From a virus (lineage: Duplodnaviria; Caudoviricetes): a DNA stretch of 25,121 nt. Position 1 is the first letter of the stretch, and the number at the start of each line of letters is the position of its first letter. The stretch is taken from positions 1 to 25,121 of the IMG/VR virus record IMGVR_UViG_3300027977_000190; one strand, given 5' to 3'. This document shows, in pieces, positions 7,594 through 23,692 of the stretch. The notes beneath the pieces are model-generated. The model was given only the letters and a program-made list of their open reading frames with translations. It was not told the origin of the DNA and ran no database searches. The position numbers were made by a program, and so were the translations under genes.

Positions 7594-8166
7594 TCAATCA
7601 TATCTATACATTTCTGCGCCCCATAAAGCAAAACGTACTCCTGCGGTAATATCTGCACAAAAGAATGCGGTTATATAACTATTCATGCTCTCACCAGTAG
7701 TAAAAGTTATAGTAAACTTTTGCCATATAGAAGTTAAATTTCCAAGGGCTTCTATAGCTACTCTGTCAACACCTCCGTCTTTTGTTACGTTTACTATTTG
7801 ACCATCAGTAGCCTCTCCGAGAGTTGATTTTGCCCAAATAGAAAATTCATATCTGGTATTTGGTGACCAATATCGTAAAAATCTTTGAGATACAAAAGAA
7901 CTGCTTGTATCCAAAGATTCATATTCTACTGCTGTATTAGAACCATCTGGAGCTATAGTTTTTCCAATTCTAGAAGTATTGTCTCCTTTATACCATCCAG
8001 AATTACTAAGTCCTGCAGTTGGGCATGTAGTTGTATCTACTTCGAAAGGACATGTAAATAAATTAGTCCGTTTATTTATTTTTATTCTTCCACCACCAAG
8101 ATTTTGTTTTTTAATTGAAATTTTATTAGTGTTAACTAAGCTAGAATTACCTTGTAATTTACCCAT
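7594..8166 (-). CDS. Galactose-binding/CBM4_9-like domain protein (head-spike type)
   Basis: APDGSNTA, PNTRYEFSIWAKS, LTSIWQKFTITFTT and LWGAEM pattern of phage carbohydrate-binding jelly-roll domains. Confidence 0.65.
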   Translation of the reverse strand: MGKLQGNSSLVNTNKISIKKQNLGGGRIKINKRTNLFTCPFEVDTTTCPTAGLSNSGWYKGDNTSRIGKTIAPDGSNTAVEYESLDTSSSFVSQRFLRYWSPNTRYEFSIWAKSTLGEATDGQIVNVTKDGGVDRVAIEALGNLTSIWQKFTITFTTGESMNSYITAFFCADITAGVRFALWGAEMYRYD

Positions 8167-8171
8167 TTTAT

Positions 8172-8588
8172 TTAATTATTTATTTTATCTATTGTTTTAT
8201 CTAGTATGTTGTCTGCTGGTACTTTTTCTTTTAGCCAAGAGTTCATAACACCAAAATAAACAAGATGCTCACTATTAATTAAAAATAATTCATTACCAAA
8301 ATTATCCTTATAAGGTTTAATTCCAGAATCTTCAACTAGATCAATTGCTTTTTCTTTTTTGAATTTGATTCTATACATTTTAATAAGGTTGTTATATCGT
8401 TCACGCGCTTGAAGAGTAATAAGTGCATCATCACCAACAAAAGAAATAAGTCCGCCATTATCTTTATCATATTGCTTTGGAGTAGTTGCATCATAAGATG
8501 ATTTGTCATCTTGTATTTTGTTTGGTGTTACAGTAGCACATCCAACAAGAAAAAAATTAAGAACTAATATGCTTGCGAGCTTGTTCAA
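8172..8588 (-). CDS. Lipoprotein, candidate o-spanin
   Basis: Signal peptide with lipobox LVG-C17; TTG start overlaps the 3' end of the upstream gene; located in the lysis cassette. Confidence 0.65.
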   Translation of the reverse strand: MNKLASILVLNFFLVGCATVTPNKIQDDKSSYDATTPKQYDKDNGGLISFVGDDALITLQARERYNNLIKMYRIKFKKEKAIDLVEDSGIKPYKDNFGNELFLINSEHLVYFGVMNSWLKEKVPADNILDKTIDKINN

Positions 8589-8757
8589 GGTCTTTTTCCT
8601 TTACTGCATTTTCGATTCCACTTTGATGATCAACTTCTTTTTGGGCTTCTTGACGCTCTTTCATTTCTTTTGTATTCTTCGCGCCGAATACATTATTGAT
8701 TGCTGCGAATATTCCAGATACTGCTGATAGTAAAGCTTGGAGTATTCCAGTTGGCAT
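8557..8757 (-). CDS. Candidate i-spanin (66 aa)
   Basis: ATG at 8757 (MPTGILQALLSAVSGIFAAINNVFG), with a hydrophobic N-terminus and charged helical C-terminus. Overlaps the lipoprotein gene by 32 nt, as in overlapped Rz/Rz1 pairs. Confidence 0.55.
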   Translation of the reverse strand: MPTGILQALLSAVSGIFAAINNVFGAKNTKEMKERQEAQKEVDHQSGIENAVKEKDLEQARKHISS

Positions 8758-8759
8758 GA

Positions 8760-9209
8760 TTACTCTACGTAACTTGCTGTAGCATCTTTGCATCCAGATG
8801 CAATAGCGTTAAGTACCTTTACTGCAAGAGCACCATTTCCATCTAGTCTAGCAAATTGTTGAGCATAAAGATCTTTTATTACAGTAATATAATTTGCCCA
8901 ATGAGTTTTTTCTGCTGGAAGGTAATCGTTAAGAGCTTTTTGAAGTTGAGCTGGAGTTGGAGTACTTCCAATTGTTAATGCTTCTACGATTGCTGCAACA
9001 TTGTTTATCATTTTAGCTTTTTCGATTCTATCGTTGCCAGAAGTAGCTTGATCAAGAACAACAGTGCAAGCTAATACAACTGCTGGCTTAACATAAGGAA
9101 GAGTATTTTCAACGCTTGTTGCAACATCAACTTTTCCAGTATTGGTTGTGGCGCAAGCACCAAGAAATACGCTCAAAAGAGCAACTGCGGCTAATTGTAA
9201 TTTATTCAT
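8760..9209 (-). CDS. Second lipoprotein in the lysis cassette
   Basis: MNKLQLAAVALLSVFLGA-C19 lipobox, alpha-helical body, 4-nt ATGA overlap with the holin stop. Confidence 0.7.
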   Translation of the reverse strand: MNKLQLAAVALLSVFLGACATTNTGKVDVATSVENTLPYVKPAVVLACTVVLDQATSGNDRIEKAKMINNVAAIVEALTIGSTPTPAQLQKALNDYLPAEKTHWANYITVIKDLYAQQFARLDGNGALAVKVLNAIASGCKDATASYVE

Positions 9210-9502: not shown

Positions 9503-9508
9503 TTACAC
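9503..9508 (-). promoter_or_regulatory. GTGTAA promoter-like motif
   Basis: ttacac on +; 6 nt upstream of the holin ATG 9496, with no SD between. Confidence 0.6.
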
Positions 9509-12229: not shown

Positions 12230-12235
12230 TTACAC
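12230..12235 (-). promoter_or_regulatory. GTGTAA promoter-like motif
   Basis: ttacac on + in the 19-nt terL-portal gap, 12 nt upstream of ATG 12217. Confidence 0.6.
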
Positions 12236-12236
12236 A

Positions 12237-14081
12237 TTATTTAATCAATATAGGTGAAAAAGTCTCCGATTGGTTAATTTGTTCTGCTTGCATCATATCA
12301 TGATAGCATTTTATTGCCCAATTTGCTAACATAAATGCAGAATAATTATCTTTTCTTGCTTTATTAGCAGATGAGCTTCTTTTTAAATGTTGCGGTAAAT
12401 CAAAACTTTGAGTACCTCTTCCAGTAGATGAGTGTTCAATTAAAACACATTGCTTTTTAGTCTGATAAATAAAGTCGTCTTGGTCTTCTATAAAGTCCAA
12501 TGGTGTCCAGTCTTTTTTATCTTCACTTTTCATTAAATCTAATGGAATATTTAAAGAAATTGTCTCATTGAAAAAGTTCTCGTCAGAAGCTGTTCTACTT
12601 GCAAACCATACTTTTTTATAATCTATACAGGCCTGAAGATATTCATTTGATTTACGAATAAAATTAGCAGTAAATACTTGATTAAACGCAATTCTTTTAT
12701 TTTCTAAATTATATTGGTTTTTAGCGTTTATAATCATCATTTCATAGTCTGGCCCTTCTAGTTCGGTATTCATATCAAGGGTTTTAATATCAATTTTATT
12801 TCTTTTAAATAATTCTGATTCATTACATGCGGCTAAAAATGTATCTGATCCAGCGTTATCGAGAATAATAAATACAATATTAAAATTCGTCAAAATATAA
12901 TAAAAATAATTAACATGATTTCTTAAGTTACCAAGTCCAGCATAAGTATGTACTAAAACTCCCTGTTTTTTATCTTCATCTAGTTCCATTACGGCCATAG
13001 CAAAATAATCTGCATTAGGACTATCGCTCATATTAGGATCAATACCAATTATATATTTTTTATCTTTATCGCCTTTCATTAAGGTATGAGGTCTTTCTCC
13101 AGTTTTTAATGTGCAGTCTTCCATTTTTTTTGCATTGAAATAACTGTCGCTACCATCCGTGAATTGAGCGCAATACTCTCTAAGAAATCCACTATGGCTT
13201 GATCCTCCTGCTTGGGCTTCTTCAATAATTGTTTTATCTATCATTTCTTCTGGTAAAGCTTCATAGCTCATTTGACTTACAAAATATGTTGCTTCGCCTC
13301 TTTCCTTGCTGTATATTTTCTCTGACCATTCGGTATAAGTTTTATATAAATTTTGAAATGTATAACTCGCGGATGAAAGAGCAATCATTTTACTTGAGTT
13401 CCCAAAGACCATTCTCTCTTCTTGTTTCATAGATCCTTCTTCTATCAATTTATCTTCGAGCTCTCTAATTTCCATTCTCTCTTTTATGTTTTGTGGTGCA
13501 ACCAAGAACGGCATCAATACATTTTTAATAATTTCTTCTGGTAAAAGAAGAAACTCATCAAGCACTAATATATTTGCGCGAAAACCTCGAATTTTTTCAC
13601 CATTAAGAGGAATCGCCACAATACTTCCTCCGTTAATTTGCCATTCAAATTGATCATTTCTTTTCGATTTTGCACCAAAGCATTGAGCTAATAATTCTGC
13701 TCCAGGACTTTGCACTATTTTTTCTAAATTATTAAAAATAAATCTAGCTGTTCTAAAAGTAGGGCCTGCGAGAAGAATTTTAGTGTTTGGTTCAAAAACA
13801 CATTGAAGAAAACAGAATACTGCAGCTATAAAACTCTTACCGCATCCTCGACCAAAAACACACATATTAAAATTTCTATTCATCATAGCTTTTAAATGTA
13901 TTTCTTGATATGGAGCAAGCTTAACTCCACTAATAAGTTCTGTGGAGAAACCAAGATTTGACCTTAAGAATTTAGCCAATGATATTTTAGCTTCTTTATC
14001 GTTAAGATAACCTTTAAGCTGCGATAGTTCAGCATTAATATCTTTAACCTCTTTTATATATTTTTCTGGACAGTATATCAT
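12237..14081 (-). CDS. terL: Terminase large subunit
   Basis: Q-motif LAPYQ, Walker A GRGCGKS, IRGFRANILVLDE Walker B, FLREYCAQF, RNase H-like IIGIDP and a C-terminal RKDNYSA. Confidence 0.93.
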   Translation of the reverse strand: MIYCPEKYIKEVKDINAELSQLKGYLNDKEAKISLAKFLRSNLGFSTELISGVKLAPYQEIHLKAMMNRNFNMCVFGRGCGKSFIAAVFCFLQCVFEPNTKILLAGPTFRTARFIFNNLEKIVQSPGAELLAQCFGAKSKRNDQFEWQINGGSIVAIPLNGEKIRGFRANILVLDEFLLLPEEIIKNVLMPFLVAPQNIKERMEIRELEDKLIEEGSMKQEERMVFGNSSKMIALSSASYTFQNLYKTYTEWSEKIYSKERGEATYFVSQMSYEALPEEMIDKTIIEEAQAGGSSHSGFLREYCAQFTDGSDSYFNAKKMEDCTLKTGERPHTLMKGDKDKKYIIGIDPNMSDSPNADYFAMAVMELDEDKKQGVLVHTYAGLGNLRNHVNYFYYILTNFNIVFIILDNAGSDTFLAACNESELFKRNKIDIKTLDMNTELEGPDYEMMIINAKNQYNLENKRIAFNQVFTANFIRKSNEYLQACIDYKKVWFASRTASDENFFNETISLNIPLDLMKSEDKKDWTPLDFIEDQDDFIYQTKKQCVLIEHSSTGRGTQSFDLPQHLKRSSSANKARKDNYSAFMLANWAIKCYHDMMQAEQINQSETFSPILIK

Positions 14082-15013
14082 AAAACTTTCATATCATAAG
14101 CCAATTGAAGATCTATTTTTTTATAAAAACATTTACTAGCAAAAATAGACTCAATTAATCTTTTCATTTCGTTTCTTCCGTCAACAAATAAGAATTGTAA
14201 ATTGTCATAATCTTGTAAAAGCTCTCTTACATTGTGAAATATATATTCTGGAGTTACTTTTATTTTTTTACTAATATGAGATAGATATTGAAAGCTCAAA
14301 GCATTTGATAATTTTTCTTCAACCATCACAATAATATAAGAATTATTATTTTTAGCTTTTTCAATTTCATTTTTAAAACGATCAAAATTTTTCACACTTA
14401 ATGTGCTAATAAAATCACTAAGACTTTTTCTTTCTATAAAACATTGGCAATTATCATTTGAACAAGCGTAATCTCCAAATCCGAGAGTTTTAATTTCAAA
14501 TGGAATATCAAATTTTAACCAACTTTGCTCGCGAGTATCAACATATATTGTATCTTTGGCTGTTAATTTATTTTTAAAATGATCTCCAACTAAACTAGGG
14601 TGAATAAACTTATTTTTTAAACCTATAGAGGAACATACATCGTAATAATCTTTAAATATCTTATTATAAGATATCGCAGATGGCGCCATAATTGTTCTAA
14701 GCTCTACTTGGGTTGGGGAATATGTTAGGTTTTTAGATTCTTTTCTTTTAATTAATAATTGTTTGCAATATTCTTGAGCTTTCTCTACTGGCTGTTCTTT
14801 AAGCCACTTTTTCATATTATTTTTATCATTAAAATCGCTGGTTAAATATTGTTCTTTTGTTTTGAAATTAATAAGTTCATTTGTTAACAGATCTCTTCTT
14901 TCAAAATATTTTTGATAATATTTTACTTTACTGAGTCCGTATCCCCTTAAAGAAAGATGAAGGCTTTTTTCATCTTTGAATTCTTTACCATCAACTTTGC
15001 AAATCACACTCAT
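14078..15013 (-). CDS. ERCC4/XPF-family endonuclease with a degenerate N-terminal C2H2-like finger
   Basis: IYVDTREQ, GDY and IERKSLSDF are the ERCC4 signature motifs; N-terminus CKVDGKEF....SLH. Confidence 0.85.
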   Translation of the reverse strand: MSVICKVDGKEFKDEKSLHLSLRGYGLSKVKYYQKYFERRDLLTNELINFKTKEQYLTSDFNDKNNMKKWLKEQPVEKAQEYCKQLLIKRKESKNLTYSPTQVELRTIMAPSAISYNKIFKDYYDVCSSIGLKNKFIHPSLVGDHFKNKLTAKDTIYVDTREQSWLKFDIPFEIKTLGFGDYACSNDNCQCFIERKSLSDFISTLSVKNFDRFKNEIEKAKNNNSYIIVMVEEKLSNALSFQYLSHISKKIKVTPEYIFHNVRELLQDYDNLQFLFVDGRNEMKRLIESIFASKCFYKKIDLQLAYDMKVL

Positions 15014-16107: not shown

Positions 16108-16794
16108 TCAATATATATCAATTTCTCCATTATATAAATATTTTTTAACTTTAAATATGATTGATTTTTTTAAATTTTTGATTTGCTTGTATCCTGCTGT
16201 TCTATTTTTTTCTGAAGTTTTATAACCCATCAATTTTGCTGCCTGTTCTTCGTCCTTGCCTTCTATATATAAAAGTTTATAAGCTTTCCATTCTATGGCT
16301 TTTAAAACTTTTTCCATTTTAATATGAATGCTTTTCGCTACGGTTTCAATCTCCATTGAATCTGCTGGCATATCATTTATTTCTTGAGAATGATTTTCAA
16401 TACTAACCGTTAATTTAGTATCATGTGCGTTTTTTTTACTTTTTTCCCAATTAGCATATAATGGACAATTATTACATTGCTTTCCATATATCGCGCAGTC
16501 TTCTTCACTTTGTGCTGCTGCTGCACATTTTAAACATGGTCTGCTAAAATTACTATATTTATTCCTAATTAGGTTTTTGATTTGATTACTTATAATTCTA
16601 TTTACCCAAGGCGCTAAGGGTTTTTTATGATTATATAAATGCCACTTTTTAAAAATATGAATTCTTAATATTTGAGATACATCACTAAAATCCATCCAAG
16701 ATATAGCTGTAAGATTCCATTTAGCTCTCCTTTTAGAGATTTCTAAATTTATTTGAGTCATATTGTCCTCAAAAGAGGATAATTTATTATCCAT
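16108..16794 (-). CDS. Phage-encoded sigma70/ECF-like RNA polymerase sigma factor with a Cys-rich insert
   Basis: Region-2-like DFSDVSQILRIHIFKKWHLYN...LAPWVNRIISNQIKNLIRN and region-4-like AYKLLYIEGKDEEQAAKLMG. Insert CLKC-x9-C-x6-CNNC. Confidence 0.75.
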   Translation of the reverse strand: MDNKLSSFEDNMTQINLEISKRRAKWNLTAISWMDFSDVSQILRIHIFKKWHLYNHKKPLAPWVNRIISNQIKNLIRNKYSNFSRPCLKCAAAAQSEEDCAIYGKQCNNCPLYANWEKSKKNAHDTKLTVSIENHSQEINDMPADSMEIETVAKSIHIKMEKVLKAIEWKAYKLLYIEGKDEEQAAKLMGYKTSEKNRTAGYKQIKNLKKSIIFKVKKYLYNGEIDIY

Positions 16795-17553: not shown

Positions 17554-20340
17554 TTAAAATTGAATATTGTCAGTAGATTGAATACCAGAAAATATAAATG
17601 GTAATTTAAAATTATTATTTAAATTAGATGTATAAACTTGAAGATCACCACTAAATATAGGATTTGTTGTTTGGGTATAATTTCCAGTACTTTCTAAATA
17701 ATTTTGTCCAGTAAATATTTTTACTGGTAATCCTAGAGTGTAACTCCCACCTGTAACGCCTAGATATAGGTTAATATTATTTGATATTGTATTTGGAACT
17801 GTGAATACATTAAAATTAACTCTTGAGTTGCCTGTCGTCAAGTATAATCGTGCGTAATTATTAAAATAATATAAATTAGATTGATTATATAATTCTGATC
17901 CTGTCCAAAAAGCTAAACCTAATTTATTAATAGTTGAATCATTTATATTTGTAACGTTAGAAAATACATATGATTTATTTTTTTCTAAAACTATATTTTT
18001 CATTAATTGATAATTTTTATTATCTATTGTATAAGTTGGAAAAGATGGCAATATAGAATATCCAGTAATTATAGTTTCAGTGCAAAGTGTTTCAGTTAAT
18101 TGTTTTGACTTGCATCGGATTGTTCTTCTCAGAGTCAATGGAAGTTCTGTGGAGTCAAAAGAATAAGTTATAAAATTATATTCTTGAAATTGACCTGTTA
18201 AATTTATCCCAGTAGTAGTTGTTATTGTTTTACTAGCGTTTCCAATGATGTTAAAATATCCACTATATACTCCTCCAGCTGTCCATATTATTTTGTCTGA
18301 GGTATTTGAATTTGGATTAAACTCTATTAATCTATAATTATTTAAAACTTTTTTATTATACTCTGGTTCAAAAATTCTAGTTTGATCTGCTTTTATTTCA
18401 AATGGGTTTGAATTTCCAGAATTAATTTGTAAAAATCTATATTTTTTGCCTCTAAATAAATTAAGAATTCCGCTGGAGTTATTGAATTGAATGTTTCCAT
18501 TTTCGAATTTAACTGTAAAATTAGCCCCAGTAATATTAGGTTTTGGAGGAAGCATTAAATCTGTATTTAAAGTAAATCTTAAATCTTGTTGTATTGCACC
18601 AGAAATTGGATTAAATTGTTTTCCTGTAAAAAATCCACTAAAACCAGAGATCCATCTAAATATTTGAGTTGCAGAATTTAAAGGTACAAGCCATGGAACA
18701 TTAGTAGAAGTATTGTAATAAATTTCTCCTTGTTTTAATGGATATATAGTTTTTATGTCTTTGAAAATTCCAGTAGAAGAATATTCGTTTAATTTATATA
18801 TTTTTTTATTTAAATCATTTTTAATGATTGGATTTTCTAAAATTCCACCTGTAGCATAAAGAGTTAAACCGAAATTTTTATTATTTTTATTAATAATTCC
18901 TGAATTATAAAACTGACAAATTTTTCCTTTTAAAATATATGGTGTATATCTACCGCTAGAAAAATCATATAAATAATCATCAGAAAAAATATTAGTATTA
19001 TTAAAATTAATATTTAAATTAACTGGTATTTCAAATCTTTGACTTTTTAAGCCAGTTATATCTGGTAATAAATTTTCTCCAGTAGCTCTATAAATATATA
19101 AGGTTTCATTTTTTGTTATTAAGTTTGAATTAATATTTCCAGTAATATTTTTTGTATTAATTTTTATCTTAAAATAAGATACTCCATTTTTACCAAGTGA
19201 GTATAAATCAATATTTTTCCCAGAAAGAATACTATTTTGTTCATTTGTCCATTTATAATTATTGCCTATAGTGTTTGGACTTTCTGAAATTTCTTCTATA
19301 ATTTGAGCATCAGATTTACCAAAATAAAATTTTTGAGTTATTACTCCTGTGTTATAAATATAAAAATCTTTAATAAAAAATTGAGGATAAGTTCCAGAAC
19401 AGGCGATATTAAAACCAGAATTTATATTAGATAAATTACCAGTTATATTTGCTGCATATAAGCTTCCCCATCCTAAAGTATTTGGAGTATTAGTCAAAAT
19501 TGGCGTATATTTAACATTTAAATTTCCAGTATAAAAAAATACATTATATCTTGGTTGATTTGGAGACTCTTCTATTTTACCAAAAATTTTATCAGAAGCA
19601 GTATTTATATTTTTTCTTTTATTGGATTTATTTCTATCTGTTATAAGTAATACTCTGTAATCATAGTTATTAATATTATCTTTAGTTAGCCCAGAAAGAA
19701 AGAATATTTTATTATAGCCTACTTTTTCTCCAGTAGCGTAACCCAAAACTTCTCCGCTTGCAACTTGATATCCAGATAATTCAGTTTGAGAGTAAGCTAT
19801 ATTTCCTCCCATATCACCGATTTGAACGCCACTATGATCAAAAATTTCATTAAAATTTTTATAAGGAAATGGTCTTGAGCTCGCTCCTGTGCTAAATGTA
19901 TTCTCGTTAACAAATCCTCCTATAACATAATTTGTTGAATCAATTGTCGTGTTATATCCAGACCAAATTTCATCTATATATAAACCTGTAGATTTTGCAT
20001 TTGTATATGGCAAATTTTCTCTAGAATAATAAATATCATCTATATAAGAAAAAGAAACATCCCCTTCAGCTAATCCTTTTTGAGAAAACCAACCATCTCT
20101 ATACCATTTTCCTAAATAATTTTGTTCTCTTTTTGCTTCTATGCTTTCAAAAAAACGTTGATTTTTTTTCGAAGAACCTTTTAAAATAAATCCTAAATTA
20201 TCTGCTTGATTTATTTTATTTTTAAAATCAGATTTTATTAAATTTAAATTTCCGTTTTCAACAAAAACATCGCCTTTTAATGCTATAAAATCATTAATTA
20301 ATCCTGCGGAAATATTTCCTGTTATTCCAAGTCTTTTCAT
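17554..20340 (-). CDS. Large N/T/S/G-rich virion protein (fibre/baseplate-like, hypothetical)
   Basis: 928-aa ORF with beta-rich composition. LNLFRGKKYRF and IVLEKNKSYVF segments recall repeated cupredoxin-like virion domains. Confidence 0.6.
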   Translation of the reverse strand: MKRLGITGNISAGLINDFIALKGDVFVENGNLNLIKSDFKNKINQADNLGFILKGSSKKNQRFFESIEAKREQNYLGKWYRDGWFSQKGLAEGDVSFSYIDDIYYSRENLPYTNAKSTGLYIDEIWSGYNTTIDSTNYVIGGFVNENTFSTGASSRPFPYKNFNEIFDHSGVQIGDMGGNIAYSQTELSGYQVASGEVLGYATGEKVGYNKIFFLSGLTKDNINNYDYRVLLITDRNKSNKRKNINTASDKIFGKIEESPNQPRYNVFFYTGNLNVKYTPILTNTPNTLGWGSLYAANITGNLSNINSGFNIACSGTYPQFFIKDFYIYNTGVITQKFYFGKSDAQIIEEISESPNTIGNNYKWTNEQNSILSGKNIDLYSLGKNGVSYFKIKINTKNITGNINSNLITKNETLYIYRATGENLLPDITGLKSQRFEIPVNLNINFNNTNIFSDDYLYDFSSGRYTPYILKGKICQFYNSGIINKNNKNFGLTLYATGGILENPIIKNDLNKKIYKLNEYSSTGIFKDIKTIYPLKQGEIYYNTSTNVPWLVPLNSATQIFRWISGFSGFFTGKQFNPISGAIQQDLRFTLNTDLMLPPKPNITGANFTVKFENGNIQFNNSSGILNLFRGKKYRFLQINSGNSNPFEIKADQTRIFEPEYNKKVLNNYRLIEFNPNSNTSDKIIWTAGGVYSGYFNIIGNASKTITTTTGINLTGQFQEYNFITYSFDSTELPLTLRRTIRCKSKQLTETLCTETIITGYSILPSFPTYTIDNKNYQLMKNIVLEKNKSYVFSNVTNINDSTINKLGLAFWTGSELYNQSNLYYFNNYARLYLTTGNSRVNFNVFTVPNTISNNINLYLGVTGGSYTLGLPVKIFTGQNYLESTGNYTQTTNPIFSGDLQVYTSNLNNNFKLPFIFSGIQSTDNIQF

Positions 20341-20479
20341 GAATTTAGCCGTGCTTAATTATAACTGCAGCAGTGTTTTTAAAACAACAAGTAATGACTT
20401 AAACTAGATGGTGTTACGGGTCGCTACTCTATTTTTATGTTTCTCTAAACGGCGCTGATTGGTGTTAAAACTAATGCTC

Positions 20480-20714
20480 CATTTTGTTCGTTCTTTTAAT
20501 TTTTAATTTAAAAGACTCGATATTGCTACCGAGATCGGACTATATCTTGCTTACTAGCTTGAGCTAGTAAGACTGGGCGCTCGTGTCTCTGTTATTGTTG
20601 CGGTAACTCAAGAGTTAGTCTCTACACCTTCATGCTTCGTTTATTTGCCGCGAAGCAAGCTTGGCTCGGTATAATCCACTTGGGACTTCCACCGAATTCA
20701 CCCAGTATGGCCAA
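20480..20714 (-). ncRNA. Group I intron ribozyme core, subgroup IA-like
   Basis: Minus strand: P3 CUGGGUG(20705-20699)/CGCCCAG(20579-20573); P4 UUCGGU/ACCGAG; P5 GUCC/GGAU; P6 region GCCAAGC...GAAGG with stem GCUUCG/CGAAGC; R element GUAGAGACUA; P7.1 CUCU..GUUA/UAAC-AGAG; P8 CUUACUAGC-UCAA-GCUAGUAAG; S element AAGAUAUAGUCC(20548-20537); P9 CUCGGUA-GCAA-UAUCGAG; P9.1 UCUUUUAA/UUAAAAGA; 3' end GAACAAAAUG (omega-G 20480). Confidence 0.92.
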
Positions 20715-20734
20715 TGTTAAAGAACTATATTTTA

Positions 20735-20740
20735 TTACAC
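20735..20740 (-). promoter_or_regulatory. GTGTAA promoter-like motif upstream of the ribozyme
   Basis: ttacac on +, 3 nt after the phoH stop and 29 nt before P3. Confidence 0.55.
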
Positions 20741-20743
20741 CTA

Positions 20744-21469
20744 TTAATTCAATTCTTCAAATTTTTCAATAATATAAGCTAAAATATCATTTCTCATGAT
20801 GTCACTTGTGCCAAATTTAAAAGTTACAATGCCCTTACTTGCACTTTTTTCATCATCAAAGAGCTGATATATTTTTTCAAATCCACTATTCTTAATATCT
20901 GATTGACGAATATCTCCAATAAATATTAATTTACTAAACTTGCCCATTCTTGTGCTAACTAATAAAAGATCATGAATACTTAAATTTTGAGCTTCGTCAC
21001 AAATGATATAACTAGCATTGATACTAAGTCCTCTTAAAAATCCTAATGGAAGTCCTTTGACTCTTTCTTGCTTTAACAATAATTCTGCTTGACCTTTAGG
21101 TAAAAGTTCATGTAGCTTATCCATTAAAGGTTGTAAATATGGATCTAATTTTTCATGAAGATCGCCTTTTAAAAATCCTAAGTTATGAGTGCTACTTTCT
21201 ACGGGATTACGAATATAAAATATCTCTCCTACCTTCTTATTATTAATTGCATGAAGAGCGCAGTAGACGCTTAGTAGACTTTTGGCTGTTCCTGCTGGGC
21301 CTTTGCAGAACATCATCTTAGTAGATTTATCTTGTAAAATTTGAATAAACTTCTTTTGATTTTCTGTCCAATTGAGATCTCTAATATTCAAGGGTTGTTG
21401 AATTTTATCTCTTTGAGGAACTACTGGCGACTTGTCCTCTTTTTGTTCTTTTCTATGTTTTTTAGACAT
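20744..21469 (-). CDS. phoH: PhoH-family ATPase
   Basis: GPAGTAKS Walker A variant, LGFLKGDL.EKLDPY, FLRGLSI, IICDEAQN, TRMG, GDIRQSD and DIMRN. Confidence 0.95.
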   Translation of the reverse strand: MSKKHRKEQKEDKSPVVPQRDKIQQPLNIRDLNWTENQKKFIQILQDKSTKMMFCKGPAGTAKSLLSVYCALHAINNKKVGEIFYIRNPVESSTHNLGFLKGDLHEKLDPYLQPLMDKLHELLPKGQAELLLKQERVKGLPLGFLRGLSINASYIICDEAQNLSIHDLLLVSTRMGKFSKLIFIGDIRQSDIKNSGFEKIYQLFDDEKSASKGIVTFKFGTSDIMRNDILAYIIEKFEELN

Positions 21470-21484
21470 GAGGTTTCCATAATG

Positions 21485-21514
21485 GTTTACACTATATTTT
21501 AATTAAGTGTAAAT
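21485..21514. promoter_or_regulatory. Back-to-back divergent GTGTAA motifs
   Basis: ttacac at 21487-21492 (17 nt before the phoH ATG) and gtgtaa at 21507-21512 (11 nt before GTG 21524). Confidence 0.65.
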
Positions 21515-23428: not shown

Positions 23429-23434
23429 TTACAC
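23429..23434 (-). promoter_or_regulatory. GTGTAA promoter-like motif
   Basis: ttacac on +; 7 nt upstream of GTG 23421. Confidence 0.6.
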
Positions 23435-23686: not shown

Positions 23687-23692
23687 GTGTAA
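23687..23692 (+). promoter_or_regulatory. GTGTAA promoter-like motif
   Basis: 10 nt upstream of the licD ATG 23703. Confidence 0.6.

Follow-up and report, generated by a model that had tools for sequence, protein, structure and literature searches.

The window analysed here, a 25,121-nt stretch of DNA from an uncultured freshwater phage, carries on its minus strand a phoH-like ORF (20744..21469) followed by an ORF of 928 amino acids (17554..20340), and the 403-nt gap between them (20341-20743) holds the core of a group I ribozyme. The phoH-like ORF is complete without splicing and matches the Pfam PhoH family (E 2.3e-49) over residues 35-237 of 241, corresponding to profile positions 6-204 of 205. 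Neither Pfam nor PHROG returned a match for the 928-aa ORF or for the genes found downstream of related ribozymes. Because the only gap ORFs of at least 30 aa are two of 30 and 46 codons, there is no homing endonuclease gene, just as an earlier sequence-only reading of this intergenic core had stated; ARAGORN detected no tRNA gene in the whole window. The lineage to which this phage belongs lies far from cultured phages, the large terminase being less than 30% identical to the best cultured-phage records. Directly downstream of this T4-type large terminase ORF (12237-14081) lies an ORF for an ERCC4-domain nuclease (14078-15013; Pfam E 4.7e-11).

The group I core and its relatives

In a cmscan search of positions 20250-20850, the Rfam model RF00028 (Intron_gpI) matched the minus strand at 20516-20777 with 71.4 bits against a gathering threshold of 50 (E 3.7e-18). 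The alignment spans the full model (1-253), and a second search returned the identical place and score. P3, P4-P6, P7 (GAGACUA / UAGUC), P8 and a GCAA-capped P9 are all visible in it; the sequence-only reading, which had described a complete paired core on this strand and proposed an Infernal search, is thus borne out. The minus strand carries, in order, the 5' strand of P3 (20699-20706), the 5' strand of P7 (GAGACUA, 20616-20622), the 3' strand of P3 (20572-20579), P8 (20550-20571), the 3' strand of P7 (P7'; UAGUC, 20538-20542) and P9 (20516-20533). A P9.1 hairpin (20492-20515) lies 3' of P9 and leads into ...GAACAAAAUG, whose last base is the putative terminal (omega) G, G20480; the corresponding (A/U/G)UG end is kept in 26/26 complete relatives. 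A 35-nt insertion between P7 and the 3' strand of P3 corresponds to the P7.1 of the earlier reading, and this one feature is the basis of the tentative subgroup IA label. Phage group I introns with P7.1/P7.2, such as that of T4 td, are of the subgroup IA2 type. The catalytic core as a whole extends over 20480..20706, and its helices P3, P8, and P9 covary in 26 sequences. By its RF00028 match, its U·G-marked P1 (see below), and its omega-G, the element is a group I ribozyme with predicted catalytic activity.

The ribozyme was missed when the whole 25-kb window was scanned at the Rfam gathering threshold, and a multi-locus Rfam scan in evalue mode detected 0 of 6 related loci. One locus missed in the joint scan (L159) scores 58.8 bits with RF00028 when scanned alone, and the whole-window miss is therefore ascribed to a filter effect; Rfam scans of 400-600 nt recover the family at 59-71 bits. 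Of 12 related loci, 6 gave RF00028 scores of 66-80 bits, and the scores among relatives overall were 58.8-80.2 bits. Since both the whole-window and the multi-locus scans miss the ribozyme, the family would be overlooked by routine annotation. The minimum-energy fold of the gap, computed from the single sequence, did not reproduce the core. At E values up to 10, the GIR1 and riboswitch models of Rfam gave no match in 20250-20850, where RF00028 was accompanied by one chance match only. The placement of P1 and P2 over the end of phoH in the Rfam alignment was rejected, as it includes many non-pairs.

Two words of the core, each of which occurs singly in approx. 130 viral contigs, were combined at a distance of 24 nt into a family-specific pattern: all 32 loci having both words also have GTTCTTT and GTGTA[AT] upstream. 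The pattern was found at 26 further loci in metagenomes and at none in 185,579 bacterial and archaeal species (one genome each). Among 50,697 phage records, the only sequence match to the ribozyme consisted of 50 nt within an ordinary intron of Pseudoalteromonas phage H101. Matches to 15-mers, such as that in L099, lie inside coding sequence and were discarded as chance hits. The family comprises 68 loci from uncultured phage contigs, all copies being intergenic. The collection of homologous loci that the earlier reading had suggested thus yielded 30 distinct sequences, 26 of them complete, with covariation in P1, P3, P8, and P9. Two types can be distinguished: in type 1 (10 sequences, the window among them), an invariant AGUUCUUUAA element directly follows a promoter-like motif, while type 2 (18 sequences) has this element within the L5 loop, and its guide is separated from GTGTAA by only about 8 nt. 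Two copies (L338 and L341) occur approx. 62 kb apart on a single contig of 132 kb; they have different guide triplets (GCC and GGC), exons, and downstream genes.

Pairing of the internal guide with a downstream site

The predicted internal guide sequence, UUGGCC (20709..20714, minus strand, wobble G at 20712), is linked to P3 through AUA, and P2 is absent. The wobble G occupies a fixed register, 9 nt before the GGGUG of P3, in 26/26 complete members. The proposed P1 substrate strand is GGCU|AAA (20344..20350, minus strand), with the predicted cut between U20347 and A20346; it is located 133 nt 3' of G20480 and 6 nt 5' of the AUG of the 928-aa ORF, and in the window it is the sole guide-complementary site from omega-G to 330 nt past P7'. 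With the guide taken at its fixed register, a complementary NNN-U followed by AA is present in 25 of the 26 complete members, 149-211 nt after P7', and this site is unique downstream in 13/26 sequences. Within the 85-115 nt upstream of the guide, a guide-complementary site occurs in 2/26 members, and one followed by AA in 0/26. The earlier reading saw too little room here for a normal 5' exon, P1, and P2; the distance from GTGTAA to P3 on which it drew measures 28 nt rather than the 29 given.

Along P1, the successive pairs of the 26 sequences in alignment A3 are U-A (24/26), G·U (25, with G-C in 1), G-C or C-G (15 and 11), C-G, U-A or G-C (23, 2, and 1), and C-G, U-A or A-U (21, 2, and 1). 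Thus, the U·G wobble is kept in 25/26 while three neighbouring pairs covary, and the pairing of P1 is as good as that of P3, P8, and P9 on the same alignment. Across these four helices, 92.5% of the cells are paired, as opposed to 33-44% when the partners are slid by 1-3 columns, and the observed covariation was reached by 0 of 500 shuffles. Moreover, the guide triplets GCC, GUC, GGC, CCC, CCU, and CCA each match their own site triplet (six of six), and a hand count showed that only 1 of the 720 possible triplet assignments fits all. An invariant G·U pair with covarying neighbours beside P3 is what characterizes a group I reaction site, as opposed to a plain closing stem. It is therefore very probable that P1 forms with the downstream site. 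Another interpretation of this region was rejected. A 3' splice site situated farther downstream, with the 133 nt being extensions of P9, is opposed by the conserved (A/U/G)UG at 20480, and the pairing of GGCU with the guide, which includes a U·G wobble, is that of a P1 substrate and not of P10. Since omega-G (20480) precedes the U·G site (20347), the splice sites stand in the permuted, or self-targeting, order.

The same alignment bears on the possibility that the element is inactive, i.e., that a former intron persists as a relic or as a structural leader in which the long-range helix is a closing stem. Chance pairing is easy in such AU-rich sequence, the activity of the ribozyme is a prediction, and one member (L340) carries C instead of U at the site, the single exception in the family. 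However, the 30 distinct sequences diverge in their peripheral stems and exons with the catalytic core unchanged, and the G·U pair is kept while its neighbours covary; omega-G, the P7 strands, and the wobble pair would not persist in a relic, which makes this explanation quite improbable. The exons of L340, L119, L341, and L331 share AAGG(C/U)UUUUUC approx. 117 nt after P7' (L340:476-600, minus strand). In L340, this internal site, which fits the guide with a U·G pair, may be an alternative or a decoy reaction site.

The segment between the two predicted reaction sites, hereafter the exon (20347..20479, minus strand, 133 nt from the base after omega-G to the 5'-splice-site-like U), is the part of the RNA predicted to become circular. 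The homologous segments of the 26 complete members are 86-149 nt long. In the subgroup of the window (6 sequences), the consensus fold of the exon is a rod in which the 5' and 3' ends are paired (30 pairs, 13 of them compensatory), and three other subgroups are structured too, with 21 pairs (9 compensatory), 22 pairs (6 compensatory), and 24 pairs (14 compensatory). The sequence of the exon varies from subgroup to subgroup, each of which is associated with a single downstream protein family. A tRNA or permuted tRNA was considered for the exon and discarded, since ARAGORN found none in the 26 exons, each doubled in tandem.

Neighbouring genes and the promoter-like motif

Among 80 loci of phoH relatives in IMG/VR, 4 have the ribozyme, namely L002 (identical) and L049, L053, and L062 (78-82% identity), and 76 do not. 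The latter carry various different genes downstream of phoH, usually with the start codon preceded, at a distance of a few bases, by GTGTAAT or GTATAAT. The site after phoH is a hotspot of gene swapping (L003-L081, 200 nt after the stop codon), in which the PhoH proteins are 83-99% identical and the swapped-in genes include one for a zinc-ribbon-like MLK(L/I)YC..CG protein and several for N-rich large proteins. The ribozyme lies upstream in 5 of 5 loci that encode relatives of the 928-aa protein, which indicates that the ribozyme and the 928-aa-type gene travel together; no allele of the gene without the ribozyme was found among these five loci.

The presence of the ribozyme in just 4 of 80 phoH loci resembles a mobile insertion, as would be expected of a conventional self-splicing intron residing in a phoH read-through transcript or in a 5' UTR. 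The 5' splice site would then be located upstream, e.g., in the last phoH codons following GAAGAAU, while G20480 would precede the 3' splice site. Rfam does put P1 at the phoH end, and in the window GAAGAAUUG from this region can form 9 bp with UAGUUCUUU, U·G pair included, so that splicing of GAAGAAU|UG to G20479 would give GAA GAA UGA. This pairing, however, is lost in relatives, where L049 and L053 have GAAGAAC, with C for U, and L347 and L351 have other sequences; it is impossible behind other genes, and this candidate P1 was therefore ruled out. PhoH needs no splicing to be complete, stop codons occur in all frames between G20480 and the next AUG, the guide adjoins P3 and has no upstream partner, and the family is also found behind unrelated or divergent genes. 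Three loci (L164, L234, and L326) have an upstream ORF that is transcribed divergently, which leaves neither a read-through transcript nor a coding 5' exon available there. The present comparison of sequences largely refutes the conventional-intron reading, which we regard as highly unlikely. With its flanking ORFs intact, an upstream site absent, and divergent neighbours in some loci, the element does not qualify as a group I intron interrupting a gene; it is, as these comparisons indicate, a stand-alone group I ribozyme gene. The earlier proposal that the core is kept for something other than ordinary gene splicing gains support from the family evidence, the intact ORFs, and the downstream P1 strand.

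A putative promoter motif, GTGTAA (20735..20740, minus strand), is located 3 nt after the phoH stop codons, and GTGTA[AT] is present upstream in all 28 members for which 5' flanking sequence is available. The window contains 14 copies of GTGTAA, most of them 6-31 nt upstream of ORF starts and on the proper strand (e.g., 1215-1220, 9503-9508, 12230-12235, 21487-21492, 21507-21512, 23429-23434, and 23687-23692). GTGTAA-N4-20-ATG was observed 8 times against 2.5 expected, a number reached in 0 of 100 shuffles. GTGTAA resembles the T4 late promoter, TATAAATA. Pfam gives a weak Sigma70_r2 match in the ORF at 16108-16794, and it may be speculated that the product of this ORF reads GTGTAA as a late factor.

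The spacing between the motif and the RNA that follows is fixed. The A of AGUUCUUU is positioned exactly 8 nt after GTGTAA in 10/10 type-1 members, whereas in 18/18 type-2 members the motif is found in the L5 loop, and in 15 of these 18 it is the wobble G that lies exactly 8 nt after GTGTA[AT]. This constant 8-nt spacing suggests that transcription starts at the purine in question, A20726 in the window, where the invariant AGUUCUUUAA element (20717..20726, minus strand) would be the likely 5' end of the RNA. The GTGTAA-to-ATG distances within the window are not constant, however (6, 8, 12, 18 nt and others), and the start at this purine is therefore putative. The laboratory L-21 ScaI form of the Tetrahymena ribozyme begins at the wobble G, and so would the type-2 RNA. 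A 5' hairpin with AGUUCUUU as its loop was also considered, but good stems exist only in L106/L119 and L200, and the fixed 8-nt spacing from GTGTAA favours a start at the A of this motif instead.

The invariance of the motif (28/28 members with 5' flank) also raises the question of whether it acts in trans. According to this alternative, AGUUCUUU(A/G)A would guide the ribozyme to RNAs with (U/C)AAAGAA(U/C), either to cut them or to donate a leader. The motif is exposed, at the likely 5' end in type 1 and in an A-flanked loop in type 2, and has one G able to wobble-pair; nevertheless, the L5 position of type 2 is far from P3 and is not that of a guide, a proper guide with a partner in cis is already present, and no conserved target was found. 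A trans-acting or trans-splicing ribozyme thus has very little probability. Searches of the exon, P9.1, and gene start for a partner of AGUUCUUU gave only A/G-rich matches of 5-7 bp at varying places.

The units also differ at their 3' ends. In L340 and L331 (the latter a partial member), an intrinsic terminator is located approx. 20 nt after the cut site, and the next gene has a fresh GTGTAA of its own; in 8 further members, the unit is separated from the gene by a second GTGTAA together with an AT-rich hairpin. In the remaining 17 of the 26 complete members, the cut site is 4-12 nt before the start codon of a gene that has no GTGTAA of its own. The suggestion that the ribozyme has its own promoter is strengthened by the motif in 28/28 members at fixed spacing, the divergent upstream genes, and the terminators belonging to the units, the motif's function as a promoter being putative.

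Predicted reactions and known parallels

The arrangement described above is consistent with the following pathway. Transcription would start approx. 9 nt after GTGTAA, and there would therefore be no 5' exon. Free guanosine or GTP would attack after U20347 and thereby release the message for the 928-aa protein with a 7-nt leader, composed of the added G and AAAUUC. The 3'-OH of U20347, held in P1, would then attack the bond after G20480 and join U20347 to G20479 (predicted junction ...ACGGCU joined to GAGCAUUAG), which would yield a rod-like circle of 133 nt and a free ribozyme of approx. 247 nt. We infer catalysis, the circle, and the transcription start from the sequence, and assign a probability of roughly 55% to the full pathway, in which cleavage 6 nt before the start codon is combined with back-splicing of the 133 nt into a circle. 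Of the roles listed in the earlier reading, circle formation and 5' processing are favoured by the downstream P1 site, and trans-splicing has found no support.

The main rival of this pathway is a role in cleavage only, as P10, i.e., pairing of the exon start with the 5' part of the guide, amounts to at least 4 bp in only 3 of the 26 sequences (L234, L316, and L350, by hand count). According to this explanation, the element would be a self-cleaving leader that is cut at GGCU|AAA by means of P1 and free guanosine, with the second step absent or reduced to hydrolysis at omega-G, and a long structured leader would be converted into a short-leader mRNA with the 133 nt being a tether. In addition to the weakness of P10 in 23/26 members (hand count), such a role would account for the cut lying 4-12 nt before the start codon of a gene lacking its own GTGTAA in 17/26 members and for the subgroup-specific exon; the lack of conservation of the segment between subgroups would fit a mere tether or leader as well. 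However, the omega-G context is kept in 26/26, the exon has a covarying fold of its own, and P1 alone suffices for circularization in engineered constructs (PMC10457212). Moreover, in the 8 members in which a hairpin and a second GTGTAA separate the gene from the unit, as well as in L340 and the partial L331 with their terminator and new GTGTAA, trimming of mRNA is not the purpose, since these signals intervene and yet P1 and the core are intact. Cleavage alone is thus a possible but rather unlikely role. A type-2 start at the wobble G would make P10 impossible there.

Returning to the circle-forming pathway, in units whose cut site is followed by a second promoter or a terminator, nothing but the ribozyme and the circle would be produced, and the circle, or else an RNA comprising ribozyme and exon, is probably the purpose of the unit.

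The closest cultured-phage relative in terms of sequence is the intron of phage H101, which is 86% identical to the window over 50 nt of P3-P6. Like the window ribozyme, it has a phage-type core with an RF00028 score above the cut-off, an insertion between P7 and P3, and an ...AAUG end. In contrast to the window family, which is intergenic, has neither P2 nor an upstream P1 strand, and has its P1 substrate 3' of omega-G, the H101 intron interrupts coding sequence and has P2 as well as a normal P1, formed by CCAGAU| and GUCUGG, on its upstream side. It is an unannotated classical intron (L087, KR534323.1, approx. 8020-8970; 66.4 bits) that begins inside a CDS annotated to 8050, and a second partial group I match and another P7 3' strand follow in an 860-nt 'intergenic' stretch of H101, where the gene has probably been split and wrongly annotated. 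In L092 and L097, two closely related introns of the classical group I kind lie in the same polymerase-like ORF, one of them with approx. 240 nt of extra sequence replacing the P8 region.

Two natural group I or group I-derived ribozymes, the lariat-capping GIR1 and the c-di-GMP-controlled ribozyme in a 5' UTR of Clostridioides difficile, exert their action at the leader or 5' end of the message that follows them. This resembles the action predicted for the window ribozyme, in that no split gene is restored; the window ribozyme differs from GIR1 in having a core of the ordinary group I kind, omega-G, and a U·G-marked P1. GIR1 is described also in PMC8637638. That text further presents bacterial circularly permuted group II introns, for which circles were shown and which are stand-alone elements located outside ORFs with permuted splice sites (PMC8637638). 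Going by this account, they share the stand-alone, permuted layout with the window, but belong to another ribozyme class with branching chemistry, and their circles are observed while that of the window, a group I element, is predicted. The same text names the giant ND5 intron of mushroom-coral mitochondria, which is back-spliced, as the sole natural permuted group I case (PMC8637638).

The most similar layout is that of engineered Tetrahymena constructs with the order ribozyme-insert-target, which circularize in vitro and need only P1 and no P10 (PMC10457212). In these and in permuted intron-exon (PIE) designs, the guide and ribozyme are placed 5', the insert follows omega-G, and the target ends in U, as in the window. 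They are laboratory designs built on the Tetrahymena intron, whereas the window belongs to a natural phage family with a promoter-like motif and a predicted circle. The window family further differs in its structured insert of 86-149 nt and in that a gene mostly follows directly after the cut site. In a related design, the core stands at the opposite end of the precursor (PMC11417360).

Searches of freely accessible full texts gave no description of a group I ribozyme of natural origin in phages or bacteria that is permuted or stands alone. Within this scope, the layout is known for group I only in engineered constructs and one coral mitochondrion. To our knowledge, nearly all group I ribozymes described to date are introns, the few accepted exceptions being GIR1, one riboswitch-controlled leader, and coral mitochondrial back-splicing.

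Against this background, we advance a broader proposal, which we hold tentatively and at slightly less than even odds: phages encode the first natural non-organellar group I ribozymes wired for back-splicing, each a stand-alone gene with its own promoter that produces a small, rod-like circular RNA of 86-149 nt as a working phage RNA. If this were true, nature would be using the layout that engineers adopted for circular RNA, and compact ribozymes (approx. 250 nt) from AT-rich phage genomes would already be suited to the circularizing topology. The same cut would, in most copies, also free a short-leader message of a late structural gene, and the dependence on guanosine would tie late-gene output to the GTP supply of the cell. 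Phage-infected bacteria would contain a natural source of circular RNA, which would raise the question of what the circle does; it could be, e.g., a nuclease-resistant regulator or decoy.
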